A stretch of 64,000 nucleotides of DNA from NCBI GenBank assembly GCA_050260375.1, contig JBLNCA010000037.1:229527-293526 (forward strand), read 5' to 3'. Shown piece after piece: positions 19,466-45,501 of this stretch. Numbering within the stretch: position 1 is the stretch's first letter; each line of letters starts with the position of its first letter. Below the pieces are notes generated by a model. It saw only the letters and a program-made list of their open reading frames with translations, did not search any database and was not told the origin of the DNA. This DNA is from Burkholderiales bacterium (GTDB lineage Bacteria; Bacillota; Clostridia; Christensenellales; SZUA-584). Position numbers and translations under genes: made by a program.

Positions 19466-19475
19466 ATGATCCTCC

Positions 19476-19728: not shown

Positions 19729-19731
19729 TGT

Positions 19732-25449: not shown

Positions 25450-25467
25450 GGTATTTTCATCCTTTCA

Positions 25468-25891: not shown

Positions 25892-25908
25892 AGTGAAAAT
25901 CTCCTTCA

Positions 25909-27559: not shown

Positions 27560-27642
27560 TTCTATCTCCGTCCTTTCCGAGGGACGGTGTAGATGTGTCC
27601 CTCGGTATACGGAGAAAAAGTGGGGGTTTTATACACCCATTT

Positions 27643-28029: not shown

Positions 28030-28033
28030 GCGT

Positions 28034-28223
28034 TGTGTCCTTTCCGCCTGTGTGCGGATGAGGGCGACAAGGACACATAAAAAGCCGGTGCTTCGATGTA
28101 AACCGACCGTTACGCCTGAAATGGGCATGACAAGGCACGGTGGGTACATCCGAGGCTCCGAACACGGCGTTTACCGTGCTTGGAACTTCCTATGTATCCC
28201 GCCGCCTTAATGCGCATCTCAGG
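28034..28223 (-). promoter_or_regulatory. Structured RNA leader: long rod hairpin, terminator-like hairpin, RBS-sequestering hairpin
   Basis: Hand pairing: CCTGAGATG/CATTTCAGG, AAGGC/GCCTT, TACAT/ATGTA, GCACGG/CCGTGT; GTCGGT/ACCGGC plus TTTTT; GTGTCCTT/AAGGACAC. Confidence 0.6.
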
Positions 28224-28295
28224 CTTTGAGATTTATTTTTTCAGCAAAATGTGTTCATTTTTGCAGTTAATGCATTTGCGAAAGCAAATAAACTA

Positions 28296-28324: not shown

Positions 28325-28434
28325 ACCTTTAGTTTGTTGCATCGGCTGTTGCAACCAGCTTTGTATTGCATTTTTCTTCAGATATGAATCATTCTGCTGA
28401 CAATATAATTGTATTTGATTTTCTGTTTTTACCA

Positions 28435-28470
28435 CGGAACGCAACGGACTGATTCGGACCGATTCGGACT
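28435..28470. repeat. Four CGGA(A/C)(C/T) direct repeats at 10-bp period
   Basis: CGGAAC-GCAA-CGGACT-GATT-CGGACC-GATT-CGGACT. Confidence 0.8.
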
Positions 28471-28495
28471 ATGGGCAGAGAAAGGAGAGGCGCTT

Positions 28496-29467: not shown

Positions 29468-29903
29468 ACTGTTTAACACCCCGTTCGAAACTTCACTCCG
29501 CGTTCTTCTGACCCTACGCGTATTTGGAGAAGCTATGACGCTGGACAAAATTGCTGCCGCTGATTTTATGACGATTTATGCTCGTGATTTTAGCCTTGCT
29601 GCGTACAACCTGAATGGTGACAACAGCTTAAGTTTTAGTGAAGTAGCGTCAAAGAGAGTGCTTGTTGGCAAGGCAATTAAGCAGCTTGTACTTAATAGGC
29701 TCGTATCAGCAGTACAAAACCGAAGCGGCTTTACATACGAAATAACAGCACAAGGAGCGCATATATGTGACGAGCTGACTTCCGACTATACCGATGAGTA
29801 TATTGTTATGTCTCAAGCGGTTTGCAAGTATATTGAAGGCAAGTCAGAAGTTGAAATTCTCGCAGAAATTAATAAAAGAGCACTTAGCGGAAAGGAGGAG
29901 TGA
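29460..29903 (+). CDS. ABC-3C middle component (LmuC-like)
   Basis: LFNTPFETSLRVLL...DFMTIY...NLNGD; overlaps both neighbours. Confidence 0.75.
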   Translation: MTELFNTPFETSLRVLLTLRVFGEAMTLDKIAAADFMTIYARDFSLAAYNLNGDNSLSFSEVASKRVLVGKAIKQLVLNRLVSAVQNRSGFTYEITAQGAHICDELTSDYTDEYIVMSQAVCKYIEGKSEVEILAEINKRALSGKEE

Positions 29904-31747
29904 ACATGGCAGATTTTTATATAAATAAGCTAATAGTCAAGGGTGCCGGTAAAAAGGATGCTGTTGCAGAGTTTGACAGAGGGCTTACGATTATATCGGG
30001 TCCTTCAAACACAGGAAAAACCACCATCCTTCGTTGTATCGATTATATTTTTGGCAGTGATAATCTTCCGTTTGCGGGTGCCACTGGTTATGATACTATT
30101 ATGCTTTTTGTTAGCACAGAAGATGGCTCGATTCAATTTACACGCAAACTGGAATCAAACAAAATCGATGTAGTTAGTTCTGACGATAGAATCGAAAGTG
30201 GTACTTATAAAGCCAGAAACGCGACGAAAACCATGGAATCTATCAGTAAGGTTTGGCTTGCTTTAATTGGTATAGAGGATGACCATGACATAATTGCCAA
30301 CGAAAATTTTAGACCACAACATCTGACATGGCGCACCTTCCTGCCCGTCATCCTAATAAAGGAACGTCAGATAGAACGAGAGAGTTCTATCCTTATGCCA
30401 GAAGGCGGTGCAAAAAGCATACAGGGGCGCACAGCTTTCCTCTCATCTTTATTGTTTTTGATATACGGAAACGACTTCTCCAATTTTGATGAACGCGAAA
30501 GCAAAAAAGAACGAGCCATACGAAAAGCAGCAGTTGAAAAGTATATCAATAAAGAGCTTTCCGGAGTTGCAGACCGAAAACAAAGTATCCTTGATATGAT
30601 TGGTGCATTTGACGGGTTGGACGTCCAAAAAGAAATTGACAATGCAGTTCAAGCATTATCGGATATCGAAGAAAAAATATCAGCCGCGATGTCAAACAGC
30701 CAGTCGTTACTCAACAACATGCTAGCGAAGAAAGAGCGTTTGACAGAATGCCAAATGCTTATATCACGCTACGCCGCACTAAAAACGCAGTACAGCGCAG
30801 ACATAAAGCGGCTTTCATTTATCGTTGACGGCGAAACCGTTATGAAACATGTGTCGCATGACTCTAACTGCCCGTTTTGTAATGGGAAAATCCCGACACA
30901 GAATACGAAATCTTACATTGAGGCTGCCCGATCCGAGCTTTCAAGGATAGTGGCTCAATATAACGACCTTGTTGGTGCAGAAGATGATATCAAACAACAA
31001 ATACAGGAATTACAGACAGAGATTGTGCTACTGACAGAACAGAAAAGCAGTGTGGAAGAGCTGATAGCAAAAGATCTGCAGCCACAAGCCAGAGCTCTTT
31101 CTGAGACCATTGATGCTTATCGCGTATATATACAGTTAAACTATGAGCTCGATGTAATACACCGCCTCGCTGATGGATGGTATAGCGACCTGCGTGATAT
31201 GCAGAACGAAGATGTATCCGAAATTAAATATAAGCCAATGGACAAGTTTGATGACCGATTTTGGGAAGGGATGGATGCTGCACTAATTGAAATATTGACG
31301 GAGTGCAAGTACACGCCTCTTATCTCAGCGCGATTCTCAAAGAGCTCTTTCGACTTAGAAATTAACGGACAAGCAAAAGCTTTAACGCAAGGTAAAGGTT
31401 ACTGCTCCATTTTAAATACGATTGTGGTCATGGCATTTCGCAAATTCATGTTGGAAAATGCTGTTTACAATCCTGGGCTATGTATCGTTGACACGCCGCT
31501 ACATGGAATTGATGAGGGAACAAAGAATGAAACATCGGAGAGTGTACAAACCGCTTTGTTTCAGTACTTCATCAATAGCCGAGAAATGGGACAGCTGATA
31601 ATCGTGGAAAACGAGCGGACGCTACCTAATCTCGATTATAATCAGAACGGTGTAAGACGAATCATCTTCACAGGCATCGTCGGTGAAGATCAGTGTGGTT
31701 TTTTGCATGATTGCAAATTTGATATACCACAATCCCCAAAAGAGTGA
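29900..31747 (+). CDS. SMC/Rad50-like ABC ATPase (LmuB-like)
   Basis: Walker A GPSNTGKT, coiled coils flanking a CPFC zinc hook, degenerate signature QGKG, Walker B IVDTP. Confidence 0.82.
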   Translation: MNMADFYINKLIVKGAGKKDAVAEFDRGLTIISGPSNTGKTTILRCIDYIFGSDNLPFAGATGYDTIMLFVSTEDGSIQFTRKLESNKIDVVSSDDRIESGTYKARNATKTMESISKVWLALIGIEDDHDIIANENFRPQHLTWRTFLPVILIKERQIERESSILMPEGGAKSIQGRTAFLSSLLFLIYGNDFSNFDERESKKERAIRKAAVEKYINKELSGVADRKQSILDMIGAFDGLDVQKEIDNAVQALSDIEEKISAAMSNSQSLLNNMLAKKERLTECQMLISRYAALKTQYSADIKRLSFIVDGETVMKHVSHDSNCPFCNGKIPTQNTKSYIEAARSELSRIVAQYNDLVGAEDDIKQQIQELQTEIVLLTEQKSSVEELIAKDLQPQARALSETIDAYRVYIQLNYELDVIHRLADGWYSDLRDMQNEDVSEIKYKPMDKFDDRFWEGMDAALIEILTECKYTPLISARFSKSSFDLEINGQAKALTQGKGYCSILNTIVVMAFRKFMLENAVYNPGLCIVDTPLHGIDEGTKNETSESVQTALFQYFINSREMGQLIIVENERTLPNLDYNQNGVRRIIFTGIVGEDQCGFLHDCKFDIPQSPKE

Positions 31748-31761: not shown

Positions 31762-31989
31762 GTGCATTTTAGTTACAATAACTTATGGAAGTTATTAATC
31801 GACAAAAACATGAACAAGCAGGATTTGCGAAAAATAACAGGTATCAGTTCCGCTTCAATTGCCAAGCTGGGCAAAGGCGAGAATGTAAATACCGAAGTGC
31901 TCCTGCGTATATGTAAGGCACTAAATTGTGATATATCTGATATTATGGAATTCGTCCCAGGTTCGTGTGATGATTTCGGCAAAGAGTGA
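31762..31989 (+). CDS. Cro/C1-type HTH regulator
   Basis: SYNNLWKLLID...ISSASIAKLGKGENV...LNCDISDIME. Confidence 0.9.
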   Translation: MHFSYNNLWKLLIDKNMNKQDLRKITGISSASIAKLGKGENVNTEVLLRICKALNCDISDIMEFVPGSCDDFGKE

Positions 31990-32064: not shown

Positions 32065-33681
32065 ATGGCAACTGATCATAATATAAAATTACATAGTGCT
32101 GATATATCGACCAGCTGTCTTATCAATGCGGTTAGAGTTTCTTTTGGCACATGGTTGTCAGGTAATAAGAGCAAGCATGAAACAGCACTTATTCTATCAT
32201 CGCTTGATAGTGCCTCTGAGCAGATGTTAAAGCGAAAGATAATAGATTGTTCACTGTGGGAAATAACAAACCCCGCTGTTTTCATTGAGGTCTATAATAA
32301 GGCACGTGACAACAAGTTATTTAGAGTAATGGATAAGAAATGCTATTTATCGTTTATGCGGGATGGGCGAGTGTTTTTAAAGTTCCTCAAATCAAAGCCA
32401 GCTATACAGATTGATAATGCTTCGAAAAATATATCACCTTTGGACGAACAGCAAACTACACCTTTGACCATCAAAGATGCAGTGGTAACGGTGCTTACAG
32501 AATCATCCCAGGCATTAACCGCTAATGAAATATATGACGAGATAGTAAAACGTTGCTTATATACATTTGGGGCGCAAAACCCTGTTAACGTTGTTCGAAA
32601 TATTATCGAGAGCGCTTGTGATAATTCTACATACTCTGAACAAAATAGAGCATCTGTGCCATACTTTCACTTTGAAGTAAATGAGGCTGGTAAAAGAGTT
32701 TATTGTCTATTAAATGATATACAAAAATACCACCAGCAACCTGTCAATACAAACGTTTACTCCTCATCTCTCAGCAACATCGTTGATCTTGAAGAAGGAA
32801 AAGCTGGCATAAGAGAAATTCTTGAAGCCCACTTTCAGACGCTTTACGGGTACAGTAATATCAGTATTCTATGGAATGCAGCTCAGGATACTCTACCACT
32901 GTTTCTAAATGATAATGCTATTAATACTGCTGATCAACTATGGCGCCTTACATACAATGCTTTTGAAAATGAATATGTAATGAGTTATCCTCACATATGG
33001 AAAGCGCAGCCAAATTATCCACAGAGCTATGTAGGTGTTATCATCAACCTTGCTAGACAGTTAGGTGGAACCGTTACCAGAGAACAAATTGATGATTATT
33101 TCACACGTATTAAACAAAGGTCGCCTATCAACGCGACGGTTATACGTCAGGGATTATTGATGTTCTACGCTTCTAAACATTTCATACTAACAGAGATTGT
33201 TGAATTGACAAATGAGCGTTGTGCCGCAATAACAAAGTCATTGAACAAGCTCTTTGCGTGCGAAAATGTGTCTTACATTGTATTACGGGACATAGCCTCT
33301 AAATGGTTTTCATCATTACCAACAATAAAGGGTGGTTTGAGTTGGACAGCATTACTGTTACAAGAAACCTTAAGATTGAGACCCGGAATTGGCTATAGGG
33401 TAATATTTTCCGGTCTTGATGGACAAGCGCTTGATACACTCGGGGCCGCAATTGTTCCAAACGAATCGGATATCAGCTGTTTTGCGGATTTGGTGCATCG
33501 ATATTGTCAAGAGAGAAAAATATTGGGCAAGAAAATGGCTACAGAAGAACTTAGAACACTTTTACGTGACGTAGGTATGCTCGAAGGTAATGAACTAATT
33601 TATAACCTTCATAAAGCATTAAAAGACTACCGTTTTGCTTTCACAGACGAAAACAGAATGGTTAAGATATTGGAGAGATAA
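32065..33681 (+). CDS. Hypothetical protein with central HARE-HTH-like winged helix
   Basis: TIKDAVVTVLTESSQALTANEIYDEIVKRCLYTFGAQNPVNVV; 5 nt upstream of the PAPS reductase gene. Confidence 0.6.
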   Translation: MATDHNIKLHSADISTSCLINAVRVSFGTWLSGNKSKHETALILSSLDSASEQMLKRKIIDCSLWEITNPAVFIEVYNKARDNKLFRVMDKKCYLSFMRDGRVFLKFLKSKPAIQIDNASKNISPLDEQQTTPLTIKDAVVTVLTESSQALTANEIYDEIVKRCLYTFGAQNPVNVVRNIIESACDNSTYSEQNRASVPYFHFEVNEAGKRVYCLLNDIQKYHQQPVNTNVYSSSLSNIVDLEEGKAGIREILEAHFQTLYGYSNISILWNAAQDTLPLFLNDNAINTADQLWRLTYNAFENEYVMSYPHIWKAQPNYPQSYVGVIINLARQLGGTVTREQIDDYFTRIKQRSPINATVIRQGLLMFYASKHFILTEIVELTNERCAAITKSLNKLFACENVSYIVLRDIASKWFSSLPTIKGGLSWTALLLQETLRLRPGIGYRVIFSGLDGQALDTLGAAIVPNESDISCFADLVHRYCQERKILGKKMATEELRTLLRDVGMLEGNELIYNLHKALKDYRFAFTDENRMVKILER

Positions 33682-33686
33682 AAAGA

Positions 33687-36014
33687 ATGTATGGTTATCA
33701 ATGGACTGATAAAAATGGAATATATCGCCTTGTGCCTAACGCCAAGGTTATCAAAGAAATTCGACCCGTTTTTAGGGAGGAACTTGACTACTTTGGTTTT
33801 AATAATTACTGGAATTATCCAAAGACTGATGCTCCACTCCTTTGGGCGGAAGGGATCCGACGGTATGTTGTTAACGGAGAAGTAGTTGCCGAGGCCGTCG
33901 GTGGAGGGTTTTATACAAAGCCAACTATAAATGTAAAAAAAGAGAGATTAACACTTAAAGCAATAAACATTGAACACTTATGGAAAGAAAATGAAAGCCT
34001 CATGAGAGGGCTTGAAGATAAAGCGATTGAGTTTATACGCCAAATTCATGATGAATATGCCGCCAAAGGAATGAAGTTTGTTGTTGCTTTCTCTGGAGGT
34101 AAGGATAGTCTCGTTTTACTCGACCTTGTTGCCAAGGCCCTGAGACCTGACGAATTTGTTGTTATTTTCAGTAATACTGGAATGGAGTTTAGTGCAACGA
34201 TCGACGCAGTAAAGAGAGCAAAGGAAAACTGGAGTAAGCTTCGTTTTTATGAAGCAGAGAGCCACATGTTACCGGAAACAACATGGGACGCTTTTGGTCC
34301 CCCAGGTCGAAGAATGCGGTGGTGCTGTTCAGTTCATAAATCAGTACCAACAATGCTAAAACTACGGGAAATTACTGGCGATTACGATGCTAAAGCAGTA
34401 GTCTTTGAAGGGGTGCGTTCGGAAGAGAGTTTTGCTAGATCTGAATATGAAACAGTCCGGGAAGGCGTAAAGAATATCAATCAGGTAAATGTCAGCCCTA
34501 TACTCACTTGGGGAACAGCAGAGATTTATCTCTACTTGCTCAAAAACAAGATATTGCTTAACGATGCATATAAAGAAGGCTTTAATCGTGTAGGCTGTTC
34601 AGTGTGTCCTATGTCGTCTCCTTGGCGCGATCACCTAAGTTATGGATTCCATAAAGATGAAATTCAGCCACTTCTCAATGTGGTTGAAGATTATGTTGAA
34701 AGAGTCAAACCGGCCAAGAGTACCCAAAAGTATATTGAGAACGGCGGCTGGCGTGCAAGGATGGGGGGCCGTGGATTAAAAAACGGCGGCAATCGTGTCA
34801 CCGAAGTAATAGATGGCGATAAGATAATTTTTAGATTTACAAAGAGAACGGGTAACTGGTTAGATGTTGCAAAAATACTAGGAGAAATAGTTGAGAAAAA
34901 TGGTAATTCTTATACTCAGATTATTTCTCATCAAACATATACCTTTACGTTGGCAGGTGAAACGGTTACATATTCTCCATATACTCAAATGGACAGATTT
35001 GTTATTAGTAAACTGCGTGGCGTCGCATATAAAGTGGCGTACTGTATAGGTTGTAAAGCTTGTGTCGTGCAATGCCCCACAGGAGCATTTGAAATAACAG
35101 AAGAAAATAAAATCCTAATTCGTGAGGAATTATGTACTCATTGTGGCAATTGCATCAGTTTTACTGGTGGAAAAGGATGCCTTGTCGCAAAATCTTTATC
35201 GACTACGGAGGGAAATAATATGCAATTGAAAGGCATGAACAGATATCAAACATTCGGTTTCCGCCGTCCATGGCTAGAACATTTCTTTGAGCATGGTACG
35301 GACTGCTTTACACAGGGGCAGCTTGGAAACAGACAATATGATGCACTGCGTGTTTGGTTGCGCGAGGCAGAACTTCTTGAACCTTCAAACAAGGGAGATA
35401 AATCTGGAACGATGACCGAGTTATGCAATAAGCTCGTTGCACTTGGAGCTGGCAATCCAATGGTCTGGGCTGTGATTTGGACAAATCTTGCCTATAACTC
35501 TGTTATCACAAAGTGGTATATGTTGTACACGCAAAGTGGCGAGACTTATGATAAGGCCGAACTTGTATTCATGCTTGGCGACGACTACTCTCCATCTACA
35601 CGTGATAATGCGGTGACTGCTTTACTCGAAACTTTCCGCCACTCGCCAATTGGTACCGCACTCAAACAGGGTATTCCGATTCCTGATGGCGCAAGTTATA
35701 AGTTCGTGAAGCAAGGTTGGGATGCCCCAGAAGCCGCAGCAATTCTCTATGCGCTCTATAAGTTTGCTGAGGAAACAGGGCGATACACATTCACCTTAAC
35801 TCAACTTGATAACGCTCGCGGTAATGCTGAGGCTAAGGGTGTAGACCCTGTAGCTATTTTCGGTTTAAATCCGAAAAATTTCAAAGCCATTGTGCAGGAC
35901 ATTGCGCTACAATATCCTGAGTTCATCCGTGTGGCATTTGTCCAAGACCTCGATAACATTATGCTTGTACCCGAAAAGAAAGCCATCGATGTGCTCGACA
36001 TTATCACAGAGTAA
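33687..36014 (+). CDS. brxP: BrxP-like PAPS reductase fused to 2x[4Fe-4S] ferredoxin and a DUF4007-like domain
   Basis: AFSGGKDS, RWCC, RVGCSVCP; CIGCKACVVQCP and CTHCGNC; YQTFGFRRPWL...WLREAELL C-terminal domain. Confidence 0.8.
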   Translation: MYGYQWTDKNGIYRLVPNAKVIKEIRPVFREELDYFGFNNYWNYPKTDAPLLWAEGIRRYVVNGEVVAEAVGGGFYTKPTINVKKERLTLKAINIEHLWKENESLMRGLEDKAIEFIRQIHDEYAAKGMKFVVAFSGGKDSLVLLDLVAKALRPDEFVVIFSNTGMEFSATIDAVKRAKENWSKLRFYEAESHMLPETTWDAFGPPGRRMRWCCSVHKSVPTMLKLREITGDYDAKAVVFEGVRSEESFARSEYETVREGVKNINQVNVSPILTWGTAEIYLYLLKNKILLNDAYKEGFNRVGCSVCPMSSPWRDHLSYGFHKDEIQPLLNVVEDYVERVKPAKSTQKYIENGGWRARMGGRGLKNGGNRVTEVIDGDKIIFRFTKRTGNWLDVAKILGEIVEKNGNSYTQIISHQTYTFTLAGETVTYSPYTQMDRFVISKLRGVAYKVAYCIGCKACVVQCPTGAFEITEENKILIREELCTHCGNCISFTGGKGCLVAKSLSTTEGNNMQLKGMNRYQTFGFRRPWLEHFFEHGTDCFTQGQLGNRQYDALRVWLREAELLEPSNKGDKSGTMTELCNKLVALGAGNPMVWAVIWTNLAYNSVITKWYMLYTQSGETYDKAELVFMLGDDYSPSTRDNAVTALLETFRHSPIGTALKQGIPIPDGASYKFVKQGWDAPEAAAILYALYKFAEETGRYTFTLTQLDNARGNAEAKGVDPVAIFGLNPKNFKAIVQDIALQYPEFIRVAFVQDLDNIMLVPEKKAIDVLDIITE

Positions 36015-36027
36015 AGGAGATAGAGGT

Positions 36028-39000
36028 ATGAAGTACAGTAATTACATTGAATTGTCTGCAAACTACGAGTCTGTTGTTGATTTGGATGCAGAAAAACGCA
36101 ACCCGAATCTGTGGCAAGAGTACATAGTCCACGATGATATGAAAAATGCTATCGACGCAATTTGTCAAACTATGTTATGGGAGGATAATGACAAGCGTCG
36201 TTCCTTTTGGATTCATGGAGCGTACGGTACAGGCAAGAGCTATGCAGCTATAGTGCTCAAGCATCTTTTTGAGGATAGTATTACTAATATCGAACCCTTT
36301 TTGAGTCGCCCTTCTCTTGCTGAATACAAAAAGCGTTTTTTAAAGATTCGCGAGAAAGGTGAATTTCTGGTCGTTTGGAAAAGCGGAGCAACTGACATCA
36401 AAAGCGGCACTCATCTTATGATGGAGATGGAGGTTAAGATAAAGGAAAAACTTAAAGAAAAGTTTGGCGAAAAGGCATATTATGGAACAAGCTCGCTTAT
36501 AAACGCAGCAAAGGATGCCATTAACGACAAGAGTATCAACTGGACATATCTATTTACGGATATTCAATACGGCCTTTCTGACCAATATTCCGATTTTGAT
36601 GAGTTCCAACAAGCGGTTTTGGACGGTGATTCTGATGCTATCCATCTTGTCAAGCGCATCTGTGACGATAATAAGCGCACCATGTTCACAGGTGTTGTAG
36701 ATAGGTTTGAAGAATGGATAAAAGACATCATTGCCGGCAATAAACTTTCTGATACAGGTATCGTATTCATATGGGATGAATTTACCGGATTTTTAAGGGA
36801 TTGCGGAGATGACAATGTACTGCAACGGCTTTCCGAATTGTGCAAATCTGTGGATAAAGATGGCAAGGCGAAACCTAATGCACCGTTCTTTATGTGTCTT
36901 ATAGTTCACCGTGACCCTACTTGGGTATCAGAACTTGGTGACGAAACCTATGAGAGAATCTTGCATCGCTACCATGAATTAAAATTCCATATTACCGAGA
37001 GCGCTGCATACGATTTAATTGGCGATTCGATTATTCCTCGTCCAGGCATGGAAACCCAATGGGAAGAAGTAAAAAAGGATTTGATGAAATCCATTGAAAA
37101 TTATAAGATTGAGTTTGATAATCTTGATCAGAGTATAAATATCAATGAGCGGCTTGCGAAACTATGTCCAATTCACCCTATGACACTTGCAATGCTTGCC
37201 ACCGTAGCAGAACACTTTGGTGCTTCCCAGAGAACATTATTTCGGTTTATGAAAGACGAGGCAAAATCCTCAAAAGGCGTTGGATTTATCCACTATATAG
37301 AAAATAATGAACCAAATAAATGGCAATGGTTAACTGTTGATTATCTTTGGGATTATTTCTTTACTATAGAGTCCGACTCACGCGATAAAGATGTAAAGAC
37401 ATTTACCCCAGAAACATTAAAAGCTATACATCATTTTCAGAATAAGGCTGATTCGATTTCTGATGAATATGCGCTCCATGTCTTTAAGGCAGCATTGCTT
37501 TTAATTGCCGTAATGAGCGGTAGCAATATTAGTAATTTATATAGCAAACAAAATCGCCCGAGCAGAAAAATCGGTGCAACAAGAAATACTCTTTATAAGT
37601 GTTTTCGTGGCCAATTAGACCAGGCGACTATTGATGAATATCTTACTTCTTTTAAGGAAATCGGATTGCTTAGTATTGGAGAAATGCTTAACGGCGACGC
37701 TCGCTTAGAATTGCCCTATACAGGGAGCACAGACACATTCGATGTTAGGCTCGAGATGACCAAGAAAAAATATACGCGATATGCACTCTTCGCTACGAAG
37801 GGAATCTTTTCAAAAATAATAGAAAATGGAATGTGGGATCCTACAAGAGCTACTGCAGGGCGTGTGTACATCGCGGCTTGTTCGTCGGAAACCAATTCTC
37901 TATCTGCGCGTCTTGGGGAAGTTAAAAAGGAACTTCAAAACCACCCATATAAAATTGGTATACTTGTTGTTACTGTTTCCGAAGCGAGGGAGTATACCAG
38001 CTTTCAAGCAAAGATAAAGCAATTATCTTTGGAAGACGATAGCAAGCGTCTTGTTATCGCAATGCTTCGTGAGCCATGCACAGCAGATTTGCTGGATCGT
38101 TGGCATAAAGCTATTACGCATAAAGAACTCTGCGCGGAAGAAGGCAAGTCAGGTGATGCAAGCAAATATGAAACAGAGGCGAACATGATTGTTGCCACAT
38201 GGGCAGGTCCCGCATTAGATTCTCAGATCTATGCTTGCTATGGTGATATTCAATTCACAGGGGTTTATGGGAAGAGCGATTTGATGAAGCGGATAGAAAA
38301 AGATGTGATTTATACAGTTTTTCCGGCTGCTCCTGAGCGTCTTGTGACGGTTAACACAGCATATAGAAAGTGTACTGATAAAGTTGTCTTGGCTGGTCTG
38401 ACTAAGGAAGTGACCAATGCGCAGGTTAATAATATTGTAAATGCTTTAAAGGCTATTGGAGCATGGGAAATTAATGACTTGGGTGGCCTGATAAGCCTGA
38501 GCGGTACAAACGCAGAGGTTATTTCTACCCTCGCTTCATATTTTCAGCAGGAATTTTCTCAAGGCGCGAAAATCTCGCTTGATTTACTTTGGGCGAAGTT
38601 ACAGCAACCACCCTTCGGATATTACAACTCGATGACTGTTGGGTGCTTTATTGGACTTGTCATGCGTTCCCTCGTTAATGGCTCATTTAACTGGTTTGAT
38701 GGCGTAAACACCCTGCCGCCAACAGCGGGTAATCTGGCGAGTATGGTCAGTAAGATGCTTGACGGAAAAACCATTAATCATAACCTCTCATCTGGCTCTG
38801 CTATTTGGCAAAAATTCAAGCAATATATTCAAAAATTATTTGGCCTTTCAGCTCAGGAGGTTGTTAGCGATGCAGAGGCACGAAAATTTATTAAGCAGAC
38901 AATTACTAGAACTGGCGTTCCGTTTTGGGCAATAAAATATTTGCCTAGTGATAAATTTGGTGGCGATGAGTTTAAGTCGATAGTTATTCGAATAACAGAT

Positions 39001-40263
39001 TTACTGTGCAGCTTCATCTATGAAACTACTGATGATCAAGAAACTGTGATGGCAGAAGTGCTTACACAGTTCAATGGTCGTGGACAACTTCGGCAAGCGA
39101 TGACATCAATCCTTGCTGACAAAACGGTAATGCTTTCAGCGTTTAAGCAATTTATGTTTTTAAAGGTTAAGGAAATAGAAAATTTAAGCAAAAGCCTTGA
39201 CTTGACCGATAAAGACATTTTTGATGCGCTTCGAATCTATCTACAGGATTCGATATCAGCCTGGCGCGAAGAACAAGTGGCAGAAAAACTTACAGAATTA
39301 GCGCAAGAATTCAAAGTGATTGATACCATTAAATCCGAAATTGGCGCGAACGTAAAAACCTATCGCGCCGTACAAAATGCTTTAAATAATGTCTTTGAAC
39401 ATATGAAGGTACCTGGAACAGTCATAGAGACATTATCCGTTAGCTGGATTCCGGCATTAAAACTTTTACGAGAGATTTCAAAAGTACCATGGACTGAGCT
39501 TCCTAACAAAAAAGTTGTAGTTGCAACTCTAGAAGGAAGCGCAAAAATCGCATGGGAAAATCTCTCTCAGCCCAAGCAGCTTCTAGAAGCAGTCTTCAAT
39601 GCTCGCCGCATTATAGTTACTGATGATGAGCTGGAAGAGGTATATACTGCTCTAAAACAGCAGACATATGAAACGCCGATAAATGTTTTTGATACTAGGT
39701 TGAATGCATTGTTGGATAATGTTCAGTACACCCGTGACTCTGCAAAGGCTAAAGAACTATGGTATGATACCACGGGTACTAAAAGCGTACGTGATTGGTG
39801 TAATAACGCAAACATACCAATAGCGTGGTTGTTTGATGGAGCAAGCATTATGGCTATAAGGGCAATCAAGGCACTACAAGATGGACAAGTAGTAGAAAAA
39901 GATGCTCTTGCAAAAGCTATAACTTTCTTAAATGGCAGTGAGCTTGCTGTGCTCAAGGACCCGGTGTACATAGCTGACCGATTCTTTGCTCATATCGGCG
40001 AAAATTATCGTCCAGCATTCAATACTGACAGAAGGATTCTACTTGACAGGCTCAAGACTAATTCGAAGTTGACTTCAGACGTTTATACATGGGAAAACAA
40101 AATTCCCGAGATACGTGCTGTTCTTGACTCCTATTTGCAGAAAAAATATATTGATGAAGCCAAGAAGCGTATAGGGTCAAAGATGTCTGAGAAGGAACTA
40201 AAAGATATCGTACTTAAGCTTCTTGATGAGAATCCTGAACTATACAGCTATTTCCTAAATTAG
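36028..40263 (+). CDS. brxC: BrxC/SspC-like large P-loop ATPase
   Basis: Walker A GAYGTGKS, Walker B IVFIWDEF, CPIHP, SQRTLFRF; ATG 36028 after AAGGAG. Confidence 0.75.
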   Translation: MKYSNYIELSANYESVVDLDAEKRNPNLWQEYIVHDDMKNAIDAICQTMLWEDNDKRRSFWIHGAYGTGKSYAAIVLKHLFEDSITNIEPFLSRPSLAEYKKRFLKIREKGEFLVVWKSGATDIKSGTHLMMEMEVKIKEKLKEKFGEKAYYGTSSLINAAKDAINDKSINWTYLFTDIQYGLSDQYSDFDEFQQAVLDGDSDAIHLVKRICDDNKRTMFTGVVDRFEEWIKDIIAGNKLSDTGIVFIWDEFTGFLRDCGDDNVLQRLSELCKSVDKDGKAKPNAPFFMCLIVHRDPTWVSELGDETYERILHRYHELKFHITESAAYDLIGDSIIPRPGMETQWEEVKKDLMKSIENYKIEFDNLDQSININERLAKLCPIHPMTLAMLATVAEHFGASQRTLFRFMKDEAKSSKGVGFIHYIENNEPNKWQWLTVDYLWDYFFTIESDSRDKDVKTFTPETLKAIHHFQNKADSISDEYALHVFKAALLLIAVMSGSNISNLYSKQNRPSRKIGATRNTLYKCFRGQLDQATIDEYLTSFKEIGLLSIGEMLNGDARLELPYTGSTDTFDVRLEMTKKKYTRYALFATKGIFSKIIENGMWDPTRATAGRVYIAACSSETNSLSARLGEVKKELQNHPYKIGILVVTVSEAREYTSFQAKIKQLSLEDDSKRLVIAMLREPCTADLLDRWHKAITHKELCAEEGKSGDASKYETEANMIVATWAGPALDSQIYACYGDIQFTGVYGKSDLMKRIEKDVIYTVFPAAPERLVTVNTAYRKCTDKVVLAGLTKEVTNAQVNNIVNALKAIGAWEINDLGGLISLSGTNAEVISTLASYFQQEFSQGAKISLDLLWAKLQQPPFGYYNSMTVGCFIGLVMRSLVNGSFNWFDGVNTLPPTAGNLASMVSKMLDGKTINHNLSSGSAIWQKFKQYIQKLFGLSAQEVVSDAEARKFIKQTITRTGVPFWAIKYLPSDKFGGDEFKSIVIRITDLLCSFIYETTDDQETVMAEVLTQFNGRGQLRQAMTSILADKTVMLSAFKQFMFLKVKEIENLSKSLDLTDKDIFDALRIYLQDSISAWREEQVAEKLTELAQEFKVIDTIKSEIGANVKTYRAVQNALNNVFEHMKVPGTVIETLSVSWIPALKLLREISKVPWTELPNKKVVVATLEGSAKIAWENLSQPKQLLEAVFNARRIIVTDDELEEVYTALKQQTYETPINVFDTRLNALLDNVQYTRDSAKAKELWYDTTGTKSVRDWCNNANIPIAWLFDGASIMAIRAIKALQDGQVVEKDALAKAITFLNGSELAVLKDPVYIADRFFAHIGENYRPAFNTDRRILLDRLKTNSKLTSDVYTWENKIPEIRAVLDSYLQKKYIDEAKKRIGSKMSEKELKDIVLKLLDENPELYSYFLN

Positions 40264-40275
40264 GAGGGCGTTGCG

Positions 40276-42393
40276 ATGAATATTGCTGAAATTATCTTTA
40301 AGGTGTCCAATGAGCGTCAAACACCTGGTAGATTTCCGACGCGATTAATATTTGCCCACAACTTCACCGACTATCTATCCTTGGTCGGTGAGCTTAAGGC
40401 TGTATGCGATGAGGTAATTGACCTATCTGCTTTTACTAAAGGAGATGTTCTACCCCGCTTTAAGGATTTCAAAAACGAGTTAGCCAAGCATTCGGGAAAG
40501 CAATTACTTCTGCTCTCAGTTGGAGAATATCTTCGCATTTGTATAAAGCGTGAACGTGATAAGGCAACCGCTAATTTCCCTGGTATATGGGAGCAACTGC
40601 AGCCAGAAAGTTCTACAACAAAGTATATAATCCCGATATTTGGAGGCAGAGAAATATTTGATTCCATAATGCCAATTCAAGATGAGCGGCAGCAACAATT
40701 CATTTGGGAGGTAAATGAGTCTTCAAGCGAATCTGAGTACAGCATTACTATCTATTCCCCTGATTTCAAGGAGGCAATTGCTGCAGATGCCATGAATTTG
40801 CAAGAATGGTTTCTGAAGTGGACATCATTATTTGGTGACAAAAACCGAAAAAGCTTTTCACTCCTAACTAAATTGTACCGATATGCGGAACCTGTATACG
40901 GCGGAGTTCGCTTGAACATCGTTGATGAACCATTTGCCTATGTTGCTTCTCTTGTTACCGATGGCGAGAAGCTTAATAAGAATGATGGCAACGAAAAATT
41001 TTGGAAATTCATTGCTCAAAACGTGAAACGGGATAAACCGTTTGCAGAAACCATTAAGTATTTACTTAATTTCGACCTCAATATTGACCCCATTAGTGCA
41101 TTAGCACGCTTTAACGAACTCTCGGATGATGAATTGAACTTGTTGCGCATATGGTACAAACTATACCCGTCAGACGACTACTACACATTTGCTATCAACA
41201 GGGCAGCAACAGCGAGAGAGATACCCGTTTCGCTTAGAGACTCCATTTTCGAATTACCTAAATTGTCGGACTCTTTCATCCGCCAAAGGACTGCTGCATT
41301 GAGGGTTCTAGACTTATCTTATAGTGAAAAATATTTTACAAGACTCGACAAAATCCCCGACCCTGAATCCAGGTTGATGATGCTGACATACAGGACACTT
41401 GCGGAACGCGCATATGCTGTGAAAACAATAAGCGGTCTTTTGCGTAGCGGCGCTGATGTCAACGCTCTTGTTGAGCAACTCAAATTCGATTACCCTGATT
41501 TGGCCGAATATTTAAATCCTGATGCTACTAACTCAATATCAGGAGAAGTAAAACAGTATTTCAATTGGTATCGTCGTAGTAAATTGATAAATAGGCCTAA
41601 CACAGATATACCTTGTAGTATTGATTTTGATGGTATTGATAGCAGAAATAAAGTAATTCAACAAAATAGCAGCAACGATAGTCTTCAGTTTTGGATCGAC
41701 GGATTAGGTGCAGAATGGATTCCCGTATTATTAAGAAGACTAAATTCTCTTGGCATTGAGGTTACCGTGAAGGCACTAATTACAAAGGCGCTTTTACCTA
41801 CGGAAACTGAATTCAACCATAAATGGACGGCTACAGATGTTAAATGGGATCGGCTCGACAAACTCTCTCATAATGGCATGCCAGATGATAAGGATTATTT
41901 CCTGTGCATTGCCCGTCAATTGGAGATTATGAAAGAGATTGTTGAACATGTTTCAGAAATGCTGTTAAAAACAAATAGGGTTATTGTAACTGGAGATCAC
42001 GGTAGTAGCCGGCTTGCGGCTTTGCTCTTTCATGATGCGGAGAATTTTGCTATTGAGCCTCCTAAGAACGCAATCGTACGCTCTTTTGGAAGGTTTGTTG
42101 AGTTACAAGATGACAGTTATATAACATTAACAACTTCAATGGAGCGTACAGAAATTGACGGAAAACACTATATCGTTATGAAAACCCATGAGCACTTTAA
42201 ACAATCAGGCAATGCGGCAGGCGGAAATACCGACGAGAAGGCTGTTGCTGGGGAAATACACGGTGGTATGACACCTGAGGAATATCTTGTGCCTGTAATA
42301 ATCGTAACTCGCAAAATTCCACTATCTCCCAAAGAAACAACAAAAAAACCAAAGGGAATAACGATTAATGATGATATACTGGGGTTGCCATAA
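40276..42393 (+). CDS. pglZ: PglZ alkaline-phosphatase-fold protein (BREX type 4)
   Basis: WIDGLG, LPTET, TGDHG, HGGMTPEEYLVP. Confidence 0.88.
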   Translation: MNIAEIIFKVSNERQTPGRFPTRLIFAHNFTDYLSLVGELKAVCDEVIDLSAFTKGDVLPRFKDFKNELAKHSGKQLLLLSVGEYLRICIKRERDKATANFPGIWEQLQPESSTTKYIIPIFGGREIFDSIMPIQDERQQQFIWEVNESSSESEYSITIYSPDFKEAIAADAMNLQEWFLKWTSLFGDKNRKSFSLLTKLYRYAEPVYGGVRLNIVDEPFAYVASLVTDGEKLNKNDGNEKFWKFIAQNVKRDKPFAETIKYLLNFDLNIDPISALARFNELSDDELNLLRIWYKLYPSDDYYTFAINRAATAREIPVSLRDSIFELPKLSDSFIRQRTAALRVLDLSYSEKYFTRLDKIPDPESRLMMLTYRTLAERAYAVKTISGLLRSGADVNALVEQLKFDYPDLAEYLNPDATNSISGEVKQYFNWYRRSKLINRPNTDIPCSIDFDGIDSRNKVIQQNSSNDSLQFWIDGLGAEWIPVLLRRLNSLGIEVTVKALITKALLPTETEFNHKWTATDVKWDRLDKLSHNGMPDDKDYFLCIARQLEIMKEIVEHVSEMLLKTNRVIVTGDHGSSRLAALLFHDAENFAIEPPKNAIVRSFGRFVELQDDSYITLTTSMERTEIDGKHYIVMKTHEHFKQSGNAAGGNTDEKAVAGEIHGGMTPEEYLVPVIIVTRKIPLSPKETTKKPKGITINDDILGLP

Positions 42394-42593
42394 TGAGAGG
42401 GAAAAAGATATGCACTGAGTGCAATAAAATTTTGAATAAGGATGAAGTAGCGCTTACACAGAAAATGCTCGGAAAAGATATAAACGAGTTATACTGTATT
42501 GACTGCCTCGCAGAATATATTGATTGTGATCGCAGTGATTTGGAAATAAAAATTGAAGAATTCAAGGAACAAGGTTGTGCTTTGTTTCTTTAG
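42393..42593 (+). CDS. 66-aa Cys-rich putative zinc-binding protein
   Basis: CTEC...CIDC...GCALF; TAATG coupling to pglZ. Confidence 0.75.
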   Translation: MRGKKICTECNKILNKDEVALTQKMLGKDINELYCIDCLAEYIDCDRSDLEIKIEEFKEQGCALFL

Positions 42594-42604
42594 GAGGATA
42601 GCCA

Positions 42605-44038
42605 ATGGACAAGATTAAAGAAGTTTTCGCGGAGATGGTAGTACTTAAGAATCCTGAACGAACTAAGTTTTTTGCAGATCTTAGTCTACCGTCTTATATG
42701 AGAGACTGGCTTGTAATGAAATTTTCTGATGAAAACGGGAACATTGACTACAACGGTGTAGCTCGATACATAAAGAAATATATCCCTAACCGTGAGGATT
42801 ACGAGCAATTCAAATTCCAGATGGTCAACGGGGAGAGCATCCGTTTTCTTGCCAGAATTCGAGTTGGGGTTGATGTCAAAACGGGAAAGACATTATTTGA
42901 ATTACCAGACTTCGGTGGCACAAAGTCTGGCGCTGGTGGTGAAGTTGCCAACGACGTAGTCAGCAGATGGCAGGAGACATTGCTTCGTGAAAGCGAGAAC
43001 TGGGGAATCATTGACCTTGTGTGGGAACAGGACTTCTCTAAAAAACCTCCACGTGGATATGTCAAGTTGATTGGTTACCAGCCGTTTTGCCCATATAGTG
43101 TGGACTTGGAATTTTACCGAGAAGCCCGTAACAATTTCACAACCGAAGAGTGGCTTGATTTGCTTATCTCTGCCGTAGACTACAACCCAGGCGGATATGA
43201 TTCTGAGGAAGAAAAAATGTATTTTATCCGTCGCTTGTTACCTTTTGTTGAACGGCGAGTAAACTTGATTGAGCTTGCACCTCGTGGTACAGGTAAAAGC
43301 TATGTATATGAAAAAATCAGCAAACGCGGCTGGGTTGTTTCGGGTGGCACGGTATCAAGAGCTACCCTATTCTACGATAACAACTTGAAAACTGGAGGAC
43401 TTGTTACACGTTTCGACTATGTTGCATTTGATGAAATACAGAACATGAAATTTCTTGAACCTGCACAGATACAAGCCGCTCTTACTACCTATATGCAAGA
43501 CGGTATCGTTAAGGGGTTTGATTCTGAAATTCCTGCTAGTTCAGGGATTGTTGTTTTAGGGAATATAGAAGCGGAGAAATTTAACACACATGTTAATATG
43601 GTTGATGCAATAAACCCGATTTTCCGCAAAGCTGAAACACTTGATAGAATCCATGGATTCATTCCGGGATGGAAGATACCAAAATTTCATCAAAACTTAG
43701 TTGCTAAGGGTTGGGCTTTAAATACTGAATATTTTGCAGAAGTCCTACATTCACTACGTGATGAATTGCATTATTCAACTTTAGTGGATTCATGCATTGT
43801 AGTGCCACCAAAAGCATATAAGCGTGACCTTGATGCAATAACACGTCTTTGCACTGGATTTGTAAAGCTGTTATTTCCGCATGCAAAAACGAAGAATGAT
43901 ATTCCGCAGGATGAATTTGTTAAATATTGTCTTGAACCAGCTAAAGAAATGCGACAGGTGATAAGGAATCAATTGCATGTGATTGCTCCGAAAGAATACA
44001 TTAACCCTGACGTGCCAGATATTCAATACAAAGAATAG
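42605..44038 (+). CDS. brxL: BrxL-like AAA+ ATPase lacking the Lon protease domain
   Basis: EWLDLLISAVDYNP, ELAPRGTGKS, AFDEI, DRIHGFIPGW, MRQVIRNQL; ends at 477 aa. Confidence 0.85.
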   Translation: MDKIKEVFAEMVVLKNPERTKFFADLSLPSYMRDWLVMKFSDENGNIDYNGVARYIKKYIPNREDYEQFKFQMVNGESIRFLARIRVGVDVKTGKTLFELPDFGGTKSGAGGEVANDVVSRWQETLLRESENWGIIDLVWEQDFSKKPPRGYVKLIGYQPFCPYSVDLEFYREARNNFTTEEWLDLLISAVDYNPGGYDSEEEKMYFIRRLLPFVERRVNLIELAPRGTGKSYVYEKISKRGWVVSGGTVSRATLFYDNNLKTGGLVTRFDYVAFDEIQNMKFLEPAQIQAALTTYMQDGIVKGFDSEIPASSGIVVLGNIEAEKFNTHVNMVDAINPIFRKAETLDRIHGFIPGWKIPKFHQNLVAKGWALNTEYFAEVLHSLRDELHYSTLVDSCIVVPPKAYKRDLDAITRLCTGFVKLLFPHAKTKNDIPQDEFVKYCLEPAKEMRQVIRNQLHVIAPKEYINPDVPDIQYKE

Positions 44039-44059
44039 AAGAAAAGGAGGGGTATCGTA

Positions 44060-45196
44060 TTGATTTATGCAGATAATGCTGCCACAACTAAACTTGATAA
44101 TGAAGCCTTTGAAGCAATGATTCCGTGGCTGCGAGATAACTATGGTAATCCATCTGCCCCATATTCATTTTCGCGTGCTGAACGGAAAGCAATTGCAGAG
44201 GCACGTGAAATTATCGCAGATTGTATTAATGCTAAACCAGATGAAATATTTTTCACATCCGGCGGCACCGAGAGTAATAACTGGTCTATAAAAGGTATCA
44301 CACAATATTATAACCTAAATGGTGCCTTTAACGCTCGGCGAACAATTATTACTTCACCTATTGAACATCATGCAGTATTGAATTCTTGCAACACATTGGA
44401 GCGTAATGGCTACCCTGTCCTTTATTTGCCCGTTAAACAAGATGGATTGATTGATTCTAATGTTCTTAAAGATTACATAACAGATACTTCGATAGTTGTG
44501 TCTGTTATGCTTGCTAACAATGAAATTGGAACAATACAGCCAATAAAAAAGATAGCTGAAATCGCACACCAGCATGGGGCACACATGCACACTGATGCAG
44601 TACAAGCAGTTGGACATATTCCAGTAAATGTACAAGACCTATGTGTTGATTTACTTTCTGCATCTGCTCATAAGTTTCACGGCCCAAAAGGTGTGGGTTT
44701 TTTATACATACGTAAAGGAACTAATATTTTACCGTATATCGATGGCGGTGCTCAAGAAAAAAGACTCCGTGCTGGAACAGAAAATGTGGCAGGTATTGTC
44801 GGAATGGCTGTTGCACTAAAGAATTGTGTTAGCCAAATGCAAAAAGAAGCTGAACGATTAAAGATAATAACTGAACGATTTTACAGTGAGCTTGATAAAT
44901 TTGGGATAGATTATGTTATTAACGGGGATAAAAGCAAAAGGCTTCCAGGCAATATTAATATTTCAATAAAACATTCTAATGGAGAAATGCTGCTTCATCG
45001 CCTTGATCTGAAAGGTATATATATATCCACCGGAGCAGCTTGTGATTCTAAAGAAACAAAACTTTCACATGTCATTGAAGCAATTCGGGTTCCAAAAGAG
45101 TACGCTGAAGGAACACTTCGAATCTCTTTTGGAAGGGAAAATACTGTTGATGACAGTGTTACTATTGCTGCTGCAATCTCTGCCATTGTTCGTTAA
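44060..45196 (+). CDS. Cysteine desulfurase (IscS/DndA/SspA-like)
   Basis: YADNAATT, FTSGGTE, SAHKFHGPKG, RAGTEN, catalytic STGAAC. Confidence 0.93.
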   Translation: MIYADNAATTKLDNEAFEAMIPWLRDNYGNPSAPYSFSRAERKAIAEAREIIADCINAKPDEIFFTSGGTESNNWSIKGITQYYNLNGAFNARRTIITSPIEHHAVLNSCNTLERNGYPVLYLPVKQDGLIDSNVLKDYITDTSIVVSVMLANNEIGTIQPIKKIAEIAHQHGAHMHTDAVQAVGHIPVNVQDLCVDLLSASAHKFHGPKGVGFLYIRKGTNILPYIDGGAQEKRLRAGTENVAGIVGMAVALKNCVSQMQKEAERLKIITERFYSELDKFGIDYVINGDKSKRLPGNINISIKHSNGEMLLHRLDLKGIYISTGAACDSKETKLSHVIEAIRVPKEYAEGTLRISFGRENTVDDSVTIAAAISAIVR

Positions 45197-45245
45197 CGAT
45201 TCCAATGCTATCGCTCTAGTAGAGGTACCGGGTTATAAACCATAT

Positions 45246-45501
45246 GTTGACTTATTCCCGCGAACGGACAAAAGCTGTTGAACTGTTCCCGCGAACAGAT
45301 AGTACCCATCAAATCCAGTATCGACCTATTTCCGCGAACGAGCAAAACGAAAAATACAGACCAGACATCGAGGTGAGCCTATCGTTCCACGTTGAGACGG
45401 CTGTACTTTTGTCCAAACAGCGGCCAAAGGACAGAATCCAGGTTGAATTAGATACGAAAGAGATGGATATCACCTCTGACGAGACGAAAGCGAACTATTA
45501 A
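45246..45501 (+). repeat. Tandem rlmD/rumA 3'-end-like attachment-site remnants
   Basis: 21-nt repeats at 45246, 45277 and 45320 reading VDLFPRT/VELFPRT/IDLFPRT, then HVETAVLLSK...DITSDETKANY* from 45388. Confidence 0.7.

Follow-up and report, generated by a model that had tools for sequence, protein, structure and literature searches.

Does a bacterial operon that joins bacteriophage exclusion (BREX) genes to a cysteine desulfurase mark its own DNA with backbone sulfur, and is it carried by a phage? The question is raised by a window of 64,000 nt, the whole stretch of DNA analysed here, from a Burkholderiales bacterium (assembly GCA_050260375.1, designated G000; 2.88 Mb in 57 contigs), which corresponds to positions 229527-293526 of contig JBLNCA010000037.1 (C37). 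At 32065-45196 on the + strand, seven open reading frames (ORFs) with intergenic gaps of -1 to 21 nt form an operon of approximately 13.2 kb, starting 75 nt past the stop codon of an Xre/Cro-type helix-turn-helix (HTH) gene. Judging from gene families and gene order, the locus is very probably a complete, canonical type 4 BREX operon, that is, one that marks DNA with phosphorothioate (PT), and it is apparently functional. Its genes lie in the following order.

32065..33681, + strand, HARE-HTH-like winged-helix protein (P0001) of 538 aa; first operon gene, clade-specific
33687..36014, + strand, BrxP, with a PAPS-reductase-like PP-loop, a ferredoxin-type 4Fe-4S region and a DUF4007/SspB-like C-terminus
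36028..40263, + strand, BrxC, a P-loop ATPase and SspC homologue of 1411 aa from the ATG at 36028
40276..42393, + strand, PglZ of the type 4 subfamily (NF033445 BREX_PglZ_4, 258 bits against a cut-off of 140)
42393..42593, + strand, 66-aa zinc-ribbon protein, whose start overlaps the PglZ stop by one base
42605..44038, + strand, BrxL, short form, an ATPase (TIGR02688, 402.7 bits against 329.3)
44060..45196, + strand, DndA/SspA/NifS-like cysteine desulfurase (PDLC02657 (DndA), 7.8e-136; PDLC02759 (SspA), 4.1e-134)

An earlier note on this DNA had described seven closely spaced, co-oriented genes without the methyltransferase PglX and had proposed profile searches of the cluster. All seven ORFs were found on the + strand as described, and scans against Pfam, PADLOC and NCBIfam (E<=0.001) recognised BrxP, BrxC, PglZ-4, BrxL and the desulfurase. 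Among the 18 ORFs scanned from 28409 to 50793, none was matched by a PADLOC model for PglX; apart from two ParB-N6_N4 methylases in the neighbouring prophage (13623-16152), the window has no DNA methylases. No second strong PAPS-reductase gene was found in the genome.

The catalytic motifs are intact in all five enzymes of the operon. BrxP matched PDLC02510 over residues 1-773 (5.6e-237, 786.8 bits), PF01507 PAPS_reduct (4e-31, 108.8 bits against a cut-off of 22.5), Fer4/4Fe-4S models and the SspD model (5.2e-6); it carries SGGKDS at residue 136, CxxCxxCxxxC at 453 and a second cysteine cluster at 483, and its C-terminus (residues 518-705) matched PDLC02511 (9.9e-21). The brxC ORF opens at a TTG at 35890; since the family matches begin at residue 46-48, we placed the start at the ATG at 36028 (1411 aa). 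The long ORF matched PDLC02475 (1.7e-70 over residues 46-1017) as well as six more BrxC and six SspC models (best 1.1e-20), and has the Walker A motif GAYGTGKS. PglZ matched PDLC02544 (3.7e-34), contains TGDHGSSR and has at least 90 invariant columns in alignment A2. BrxL matched PF13337 (4.9e-103) and PDLC02505 (2.9e-174) and has GTGKS and DE motifs. The desulfurase matched Aminotran_5 (PF00266, 2.1e-77, 261 bits against 21.5) and has Lys205 and Cys328.

To place the operon among its relatives, we collected 42 genome loci with a profile of 19 PglZ-4 sequences, one genome per species, and compared them by tblastn with the window proteins. In 16 of the 42 the full set of seven genes is present in this order, so the arrangement exceeds chance. 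At the DNA level, window positions 24000-43900 had no match in the 30 relatives searched, five of them from the same genus, and a Protein Atlas look-up returned unnamed clusters alone (best score 0.90) and no structure.

The published work on homologues fits this assignment. According to the main text of Yuan et al. (Nat Commun 2026, PMC12914056; preprint June 2024), BrxP is in effect a fusion of SspD and SspB (DUF4007), and BrxC is a homologue of SspC; deletion of brxC in Bacteroides salyersiae abolished PT, brxP and brxC reconstituted PT in B. thetaiotaomicron via the host SufS, and brxZ and brxL were dispensable for PT. The B. salyersiae brxPCZL operon resembles ours in its BrxP-BrxC-PglZ-BrxL core without PglX and in the assignment of PT to BrxP and BrxC. 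In that report, however, the Bacteroides operon relies on a housekeeping SufS and is accompanied by an McrA-type gene and an extra gene of unassigned function; the window operon has its own desulfurase, a zinc-ribbon gene, a multi-winged-helix first gene, a Bacillota-type character and a position at the end of a prophage. The main text of Krishnan and co-workers (NAR 2026, PMC12839542), a census of type 4 systems, reports a desulfurase in 255 of 457 taxa, accompanied by a zinc-finger protein of small size, and describes a ferredoxin-like cysteine region in BrxP and the fusion of DUF4007 to the PAPS reductase, all of which have counterparts here.

The operon shares with Ssp systems a desulfurase (SspA model), a PAPS-reductase domain (SspD), an SspC-like ATPase (1.1e-20) and a DUF4007-like module; it differs in that SspB and SspD are fused and in that PglZ and BrxL stand in for SspE or SspFGH, and the PADLOC scan found no SspE/SspFGH-type sensor-nuclease among the scanned ORFs. 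With Dnd systems it has in common a DndA-like desulfurase and a DndC-like PP-loop domain; however, the DndC equivalog TIGR03183 scored 27.1 bits against a cut-off of 290.4, and no DndB, DndD, DndE or DndFGH match was found among the scanned ORFs of the operon region (PADLOC, NCBIfam). By these profile scores the locus is not a Dnd system.

The earlier note had seen in this locus a "phosphorothioate-BREX hybrid" in which equivalents of SspA-D mark self DNA and PglZ/BrxL form the restriction arm. An SspA-D-like PT module with a PglZ/BrxL exclusion arm agrees with the family memberships and with the genetics on homologues in the main text of PMC12914056; the hybrid label has to be dropped, the locus being an ordinary type 4 BREX. 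The SspA-D equivalents are likewise present, although that of SspB is the C-terminus of BrxP (PDLC02511, residues 518-705) and not the HARE-HTH protein. The note's suspicion that the link between type 4 BREX and PT might not be new was correct (PMC12914056). It had further counted the dedicated desulfurase and the accessory genes among the less familiar parts: the former and the small zinc-finger protein are already in print (PMC12839542), and for the first gene we found no description in the main texts of the two papers. On the desulfurase count the operon is ordinary, one more example of a class whose definition and partial validation date from 2024-2026.

We propose the following mechanism. 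The dedicated pyridoxal phosphate-dependent desulfurase would draw sulfur from cysteine as a persulfide on Cys328. BrxP, an ATP pyrophosphatase of the PP-loop type with a 4Fe-4S region and a DUF4007-like DNA-binding end, would act with the BrxC ATPase to place this sulfur on a non-bridging oxygen of the backbone, presumably within short motifs of the host DNA. Incoming DNA without the mark would then be excluded by PglZ and BrxL, with the probable help of BrxC. Two more genes conserved in the clade would add to this core: that for the 538-aa HARE-HTH protein, which is most likely a sensor or regulator that binds DNA, and that for the 66-aa zinc-ribbon protein.

Several observations weigh against so complete a reading. 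Some family matches fall below their curated thresholds: DUF4007 (PF13182) on BrxP (18.9 bits against 27), the NCBIfam BREX_BrxC model, which was built on type 1 systems, on BrxC (31 bits against 400), and HARE-HTH (PF05066) on residues 135-183 of the 538-aa protein (E 0.003, 18.4 bits against 25.9). The desulfurase scored under the cut-offs for NifS (453.6 against 530.75), IscS (345.4 against 548) and DndA (338.6 against 480), and is by these scores a class-V enzyme belonging to none of the three equivalogs; in a maximum-likelihood tree with four outgroups, the BREX-linked desulfurases formed two clades (95/100 and 86/98 support) that were not separable from the genome's own paralogues. The operon in which PT was tested is Bacteroidal and is likened to ours by gene families, and the main text of PMC12914056 states that the anti-phage activity of the variant type 4 systems studied there 'awaits investigation'. 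From such comparisons we infer that this organism makes PT, that unmarked DNA is excluded, what the two accessory proteins do and that a phage carries the operon.

The desulfurase is linked to the system well beyond this genome. The earlier note had taken a lack of linkage at homologous loci as evidence against its proposal; the gene directly follows brxL, or brxL and the zinc-ribbon gene, in 24 of the 36 loci with at least 1.3 kb of sequence there, so this check does not count against the proposal. The genome has five other full-length class-V genes, and because the nearest two are only 47.5% and 46% identical to it, we regard the operon copy as an extra, dedicated one. In the same tree it groups with loci of the Lachnospiraceae/Oscillospiraceae type, and the rest of the operon is closest to L003-L007; since these placements differ, desulfurases have evidently been swapped between operons. 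The enzyme might instead serve mainly to build or repair the 4Fe-4S cluster of BrxP. The ferredoxin-type CxxCxxCxxxC region of BrxP would call for such a service, DndA can assemble DndC as an iron-sulfur protein (You et al. 2007, according to the title), and 12 of the 36 loci do without a linked desulfurase. However, the main texts of PMC12914056 and PMC12839542 describe the desulfurase as the mobiliser of the PT sulfur, and the two roles are not mutually exclusive. We consider a role mainly in the cluster to be rather improbable, and keep that of direct sulfur donor as the working reading.

To our knowledge, BREX systems are still without an identified sensor of non-self DNA, and the first gene of the operon is of interest in this respect. 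Its 538-aa product had no match in the three family collections. We found 112 homologues (E<=1e-3), mostly unnamed and 538-840 aa long, and approximately two dozen of the 112 rows carried a precomputed PF05066 assignment. AlphaFold2 (AF2) models had a mean predicted local distance difference test (pLDDT) score of 81.6 for the whole protein and of 90.1 for the C-terminal 304 residues, the latter with a predicted template modelling (pTM) score of 0.81. As modelled, the protein has a helical N-terminal domain, a winged helix at approximately 132-218 and an array of winged helices at 235-538. The model of residues 132-218 matched histone H5 (Z 9.5, root-mean-square deviation 2.1, 72 residues aligned). 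A Foldseek search against the PDB gave nothing at E<=1e-3, the best rows being tandem winged-helix proteins; in a wide VIA-align search the whole model was matched through its central winged helix alone, and the C-terminal model alone matched single winged helices at Z<=7.3. A catalytic fold was also sought: the fold searches returned winged helices and no nuclease or other enzyme fold, although one could still exist. We also compared the C-terminal profile of this protein with that of BrxP by hhalign and rejected the protein as an SspB/DUF4007 equivalent (probability 1%, E 0.056).

The gene is closely tied to brxP. In 18 of the 27 genome loci with room for it, the gene just upstream of brxP is a homologue; the nine without it are L020, in which brxP is truncated, and eight loci of a distant clade. 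A metagenome scan with the C-terminal profile gave 24 loci; of the 20 that extend at least 400 nt further downstream, 18 have brxP as the very next gene, and the two exceptions look rearranged. The same profile found one locus in IMG/VR, a duplicate of L004. The protein is most likely a clade-specific DNA-binding subunit, sensor or regulator, and its role as a reader of PT or of DNA is a conjecture. HARE-HTH domains fused to restriction endonucleases (REases) have been proposed to discriminate modified DNA (PMC10853773). Such REase fusions are the subject of the sole 'HARE-HTH' passage in the main text of PMC12839542, and neither that text nor the main text of PMC12914056 describes a HARE-HTH or multi-winged-helix first gene of this kind, although the supplements may list it.

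A simpler explanation is that the protein is a mere transcriptional regulator, a switch like BrxR, and not a working subunit that reads DNA or PT. The gene heads the operon, its product shows winged-helix/HTH folds and no catalytic fold, and the main text of Yuan et al. (PMC12914056) mentions a non-essential brxR regulator in type 4 loci. On the other hand, the protein is large (up to 840 aa among homologues) and has at least five winged-helix units, its linkage to BrxP is strict (18/20), and it diverges as fast as PglZ and BrxC (36-42% identity in the far clade), unlike a simple repressor. None of these points is decisive; we regard the purely regulatory role as quite possible, if somewhat the less probable, and the multi-winged-helix protein, tied to BrxP in a Bacillota-centred clade, is a testable candidate for a PT reader.

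The 66-aa zinc-ribbon protein likewise matched no Pfam, PADLOC or NCBIfam family. Cysteines C7, C10, C35, C38 and C62 are invariant in 26 sequences; C62, the fifth, lies in the C-terminal tail FKEQGC(T/A)LF(L), and the other four are zinc ligands. The gene is present in 37 of the 42 related loci, more widely than the desulfurase, between pglZ and brxL in the near clades and between brxL and the desulfurase gene in the distant clade (L034-L043). Its conservation matches that of BrxL, with 56-82% identity where PglZ has 31-84%. A predicted complex of BrxL, desulfurase and zinc-ribbon protein, with the last as the partner, scored 0.48 and so did not stand out from a control with BrxL replaced (0.49). 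In the main texts of PMC12914056 and PMC12839542 we found no description of the fifth cysteine, nor of the 538-aa gene, and the supplements may contain more. Kept more widely than the desulfurase and with an invariant tail cysteine, the protein is worth specialist attention.

As to carriage by a phage, the DNA to the left of the operon has the following features.

1..28230, - strand, prophage body: tail, capsid, portal, TerL, two ParB-methylases, MetK, primase-polymerase, PolA, SNF2 and a sigma-like regulator (Pfam)
28409..31747, + strand, Lamassu LmuA, LmuC and LmuB (PDLC03857 4.9e-98, PDLC03875 3.3e-52 and PDLC03867 1.2e-220)
31762..31989, + strand, Xre/Cro-type HTH gene, 75 aa (Pfam HTH_26, 8.3e-23); last conserved backbone gene

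The prophage extends past the left edge of the window through tail, holin and amidase genes to two large serine recombinases (C37:219121-222670), so that the recombinase, lysis, structural and replication genes form one minus-strand block. By its gene content it is a temperate, siphophage-like, serine-recombinase element. The Lamassu genes diverge from the early genes and have a perfect promoter (TTGACA-17-TATAAT, 12/12 of the sigma-70 consensus, 28296-28324). A search with the SNF2 protein returned 21 related IMG/VR loci (85-98% identity), which keep the order HTH, LmuB, LmuC, LmuA / sigma-like, SNF2, PolA, primase-polymerase, MetK; because of this shared order we assign Lamassu and the HTH gene (28409-31989) to the phage backbone, and Lamassu is not part of the BREX operon. 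Lamassu is present in seven of the 21 (L086, L087, L095, L096, L098, L105 and L106), 82-100% identical in three and 31-45% identical in four. Since the relatives carry either near-identical or such distant variants, its place is a second variable defence position. Homologues of the Xre HTH occur in 10 of the 21 loci (60-96% identity). Five related proviruses measure 37.7-44.3 kb, with the recombinases at one extreme end and, in two, the HTH gene at the other; the distance from the recombinase stop to the HTH stop in our genome, 42.4 kb, matches these sizes. The Xre HTH gene might alternatively belong to BREX, as in L062 and L067 it adjoins a HARE gene without Lamassu; in these two loci it is truncated and an IS3 transposase lies upstream. 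A megablast search of 19000-28400 against GenBank phages gave no match, and no tRNA gene was found in the window.

Positions at which temperate phages and their satellites, such as P2 and P4, hold different defence systems at a fixed site of the prophage are known as defence hotspots. The position after the Xre HTH gene looks similar. In five of the seven loci examined (L101 and L095 gave nothing), another defence system directly follows the HTH gene in the same orientation: a type I restriction-modification (RM) system in L094, HKD-Snf2 in L096 and L106 (with Shedu SduA in L096) and a type III methylase in L099 and L103. In these five related proviruses the defence genes adjoin the HTH gene or run into it (gaps of 0-45 nt), leaving little room for an attachment (att) site. 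The slot resembles P2/P4-type hotspots in its fixed position in related prophages and its varied systems; it differs in that an Xre HTH gene precedes it, in that its site is the lysogeny end of a serine-recombinase siphophage found in anaerobic Bacillota, in holding a 13-kb BREX-4 and in having boundaries that are deduced by comparison.

A candidate for the distal boundary of the slot lies just past the operon.

45242..45396, + strand, conserved 155-nt segment inside 'orf85' (45244-45501)

The segment contains three direct repeats of TTCCCGCGAAC at 45255, 45286 and 45329, the last with one mismatch. An IMG/VR pattern scan found it, at 86% identity, at positions 115-269 of G040, where a complete BREX type 1 (BrxA, BrxB, BrxC, PglX, PglZ, BrxL) and PDC-M46A/B lie ahead of it in the same orientation. 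Among the other loci compared, the repeat occurred in L002 alone. Its count in the window (3, one mismatch allowed) was reached by 14 of 100 shuffles, so its weight comes only from the clustering and from the homologous segment of G040. The frame 'orf85' is probably not a gene of its own and extends to 151 aa in L002. The G040 record itself (L117/L118), a 27-kb IMG/VR entry, has PolA-like early genes, divergently oriented, on its other side.

Public sequencing runs provided a further view of both junctions. Window positions 31000-36000 are present in 19 runs, which come from 16 studies of digesters, sludge and bioreactors; we compared the contigs of four of the runs with the window and used their bridges and ends. 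Contigs bridge the junction of phage and Lamassu (X1) and that of the HTH and HARE genes (X1, X3), and one X3 contig departs from the window sequence after 31962. At the distal side, a different sequence that X2 and X5 contigs share gives way to that of the window at 45248, and X1 and X2 contigs leave at 45396-45400. The word depth of X3 and X5 contigs was several-fold higher at 27-32.3 and 45.0-45.7 kb than over the operon; as contig word depths are unsuited to ranking genes, it was not used as evidence. A 14-nt piece of the consensus of the loose contig ends had no match in 112 loci. The left side of the slot is thus marked by other systems after the HTH gene in five of seven loci, and the right side by one further record, G040, and by contig ends.

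A near-identical but incomplete copy of the operon is in L002, a contig of a metagenome-assembled genome (MAG). Its positions 5015-9694 correspond to C37:219146-223825, the recombinases and amidase, at 93.1% identity, and 9694-15223 to window 39969-45498, from the last 100 codons of brxC through 'orf85', at 98.7%. The two pieces meet at a single base, where the amidase start region runs into brxC codon ~1312; relative to our genome this is a 45.7-kb deletion, which took away Lamassu, the HARE gene, brxP and the greater part of both the phage and brxC and kept the genes for PglZ, the zinc-ribbon protein, BrxL and the desulfurase. The left flank of L002 is a pst operon approximately 66% identical to the copy that our genome holds on another contig. 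The recombinase block and this half of the BREX operon thus travel together in a diverged host.

The same deletion bears on a further possibility, namely that the operon has decayed or fallen silent and has ceased to modify DNA. The near-identical L002 copy has lost the HARE gene, brxP and codons 1 to ~1311 of brxC, so loss of such an operon does happen. However, all seven ORFs of the window are full length with intact motifs, and the stretch from HTH through HARE to BrxP is nearly whole in the 19 runs of 16 studies. A remnant is accordingly very improbable, and we continue to treat the window operon as intact; the L002 variant shows a route by which such cargo decays.

The PglZ profile also gave 14 IMG/VR loci; all have BrxP-BrxC-PglZ-BrxL, and six also have the zinc-ribbon and desulfurase genes. 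The following contexts of BREX-4 were seen in phage-related records.

L046, 3' end of BREX-4, then two serine recombinases, amidase and holin: the order expected of a circularised window element
G038, BREX-4 divergent from DndB-like, PolA, D5 primase, SNF2, MetK and methylase genes: window-like topology
G036, BREX-4 next to the lysis end of a prophage that encodes a tyrosine integrase
L051 and L056, four-gene BREX-4 between Mu-F-like, lysozyme and portal genes
L052-L055, L057 and L058, BREX-4 in what look like Bacteroidota integrative elements

The four-gene systems of L051 (1888-13069) and L056 (2021-15794) gave no desulfurase or zinc-ribbon match. In G038 the DndB-like gene (L108:65-895; PF14072, 1.2e-26) lies beside and divergent from a seven-gene BREX-4, and is possibly a regulator borrowed from Dnd.

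The earlier note had thought a prophage location probable. We can make this more precise: the operon is not in the conserved prophage backbone; it lies just beyond it, in what is most likely a variable defence-cargo slot. On balance we favour, with some reserve, the reading that it is cargo inside the prophage-like element and not part of a neighbouring host island. Against carriage by the phage stand the GC content, which is 0.40 for the operon but 0.48 for the phage body; the size of the element with the operon, approximately 56 kb where relatives have 38-44 kb; two provirus records, G031 and G032, whose predicted boundaries fall right after the HTH gene; and the att sites, which are unmapped, a repeat comparison of the prophage ends having given no candidate pair. 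In addition, 24 other loci of the seven-gene clade are flanked by housekeeping, insertion sequence (IS), RM, Schlafen, Fic and conjugation genes and have no phage structural genes, from which it follows that phage carriage of BREX-4 is occasional and not the rule.

These points can be read together as signs of a host genomic island beside which the prophage integrated, so that the operon would not be mobilised with the phage. The ends of G031 and G032, the excess size and the 24 flanks without phage structural genes would suit such an island, as would low-GC DNA (0.41-0.44) to the left of the recombinases at C37:212.5-222.5 kb, as if an island had been split. The GC content of the genome is 0.50, that of approximately 28.2-53 kb of the window is 0.38-0.43, and that of the DNA to the left of this is 0.47-0.49. 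However, five related proviruses have other defence genes at the HTH gene with gaps of 0-45 nt, the 155-nt segment follows different cargo in G040, L002 joins the recombinase block to the 3' half of the BREX operon at 93-99% identity in a host whose flanks have diverged, and phage genes enclose BREX-4 in L051 and L056, with G036, G037 and G038 having it next to phage modules. We consider the host island the less likely of the two, and prefer carriage in the slot.

Two observations concern the DNA around the prophage-BREX block. A group II intron reverse transcriptase lies to the left of the recombinases (L044:3532-4830), and NTP_transf_2 genes, which might be paralogues of a split island, occur in low-GC DNA on both sides of the block (window 55760-56677 and L044:5253-6083).

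If the slot reading is true, a whole backbone-sulfur epigenome travels with the phage, and lysogeny by a phage that moves a PT-writing system would rewrite the backbone chemistry and the restriction barriers of the host in one step. The apparent position of the operon as a swappable cassette at a prophage end is its less familiar aspect; the words 'prophage', 'integrase' and 'recombinase' are absent from the main text of PMC12839542, the supplements of which may cover mobile contexts. All parts may tentatively be combined. The 13.2-kb BREX-4 would be an exchangeable phage cassette in a slot bounded by the Xre HTH gene and the 155-nt segment, filled in relatives by BREX-1 with PDC-M46, type I or III RM or HKD-Snf2/Shedu; the HARE-HTH and zinc-ribbon proteins would be working subunits so far overlooked, the former as the reader of DNA or PT and the latter as a possible persulfide relay via Cys62. 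Taken as a whole this combination is possible, though we would not expect every part of it to hold.

Some minor features were also recorded. In the prophage, the two ParB-N6/N4 methylase genes lie beside metK (13623-17305) in what looks like a self-protection or anti-restriction module, and G038 has the same MetK-methylase pairing. A 50-nt sequence after the SNF2 gene (27600-27649) recurs with 84% identity between the recombinases and the amidase (C37:222983-223032) and is also found at L002:8852-8901; it may be a regulatory site. As the sole repeat linking the prophage ends it was considered as an att pair and rejected because it lies inside the prophage. The low-GC island to the right of the operon contains ORFs of 381 and 277 aa (47990-50132) without a Pfam or NCBIfam match at E<=0.001 and with marginal PADLOC matches to PDC-S44 (6.5e-4) and MTase_I (2.8e-4). 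Finally, a 36-nt stretch of L002 (15733-15768) matches, at 94% identity, the terminal ~40 nt (first or last) of 18 G000 contigs, and is probably a repeat or the end of an insertion sequence at which the assembly breaks.

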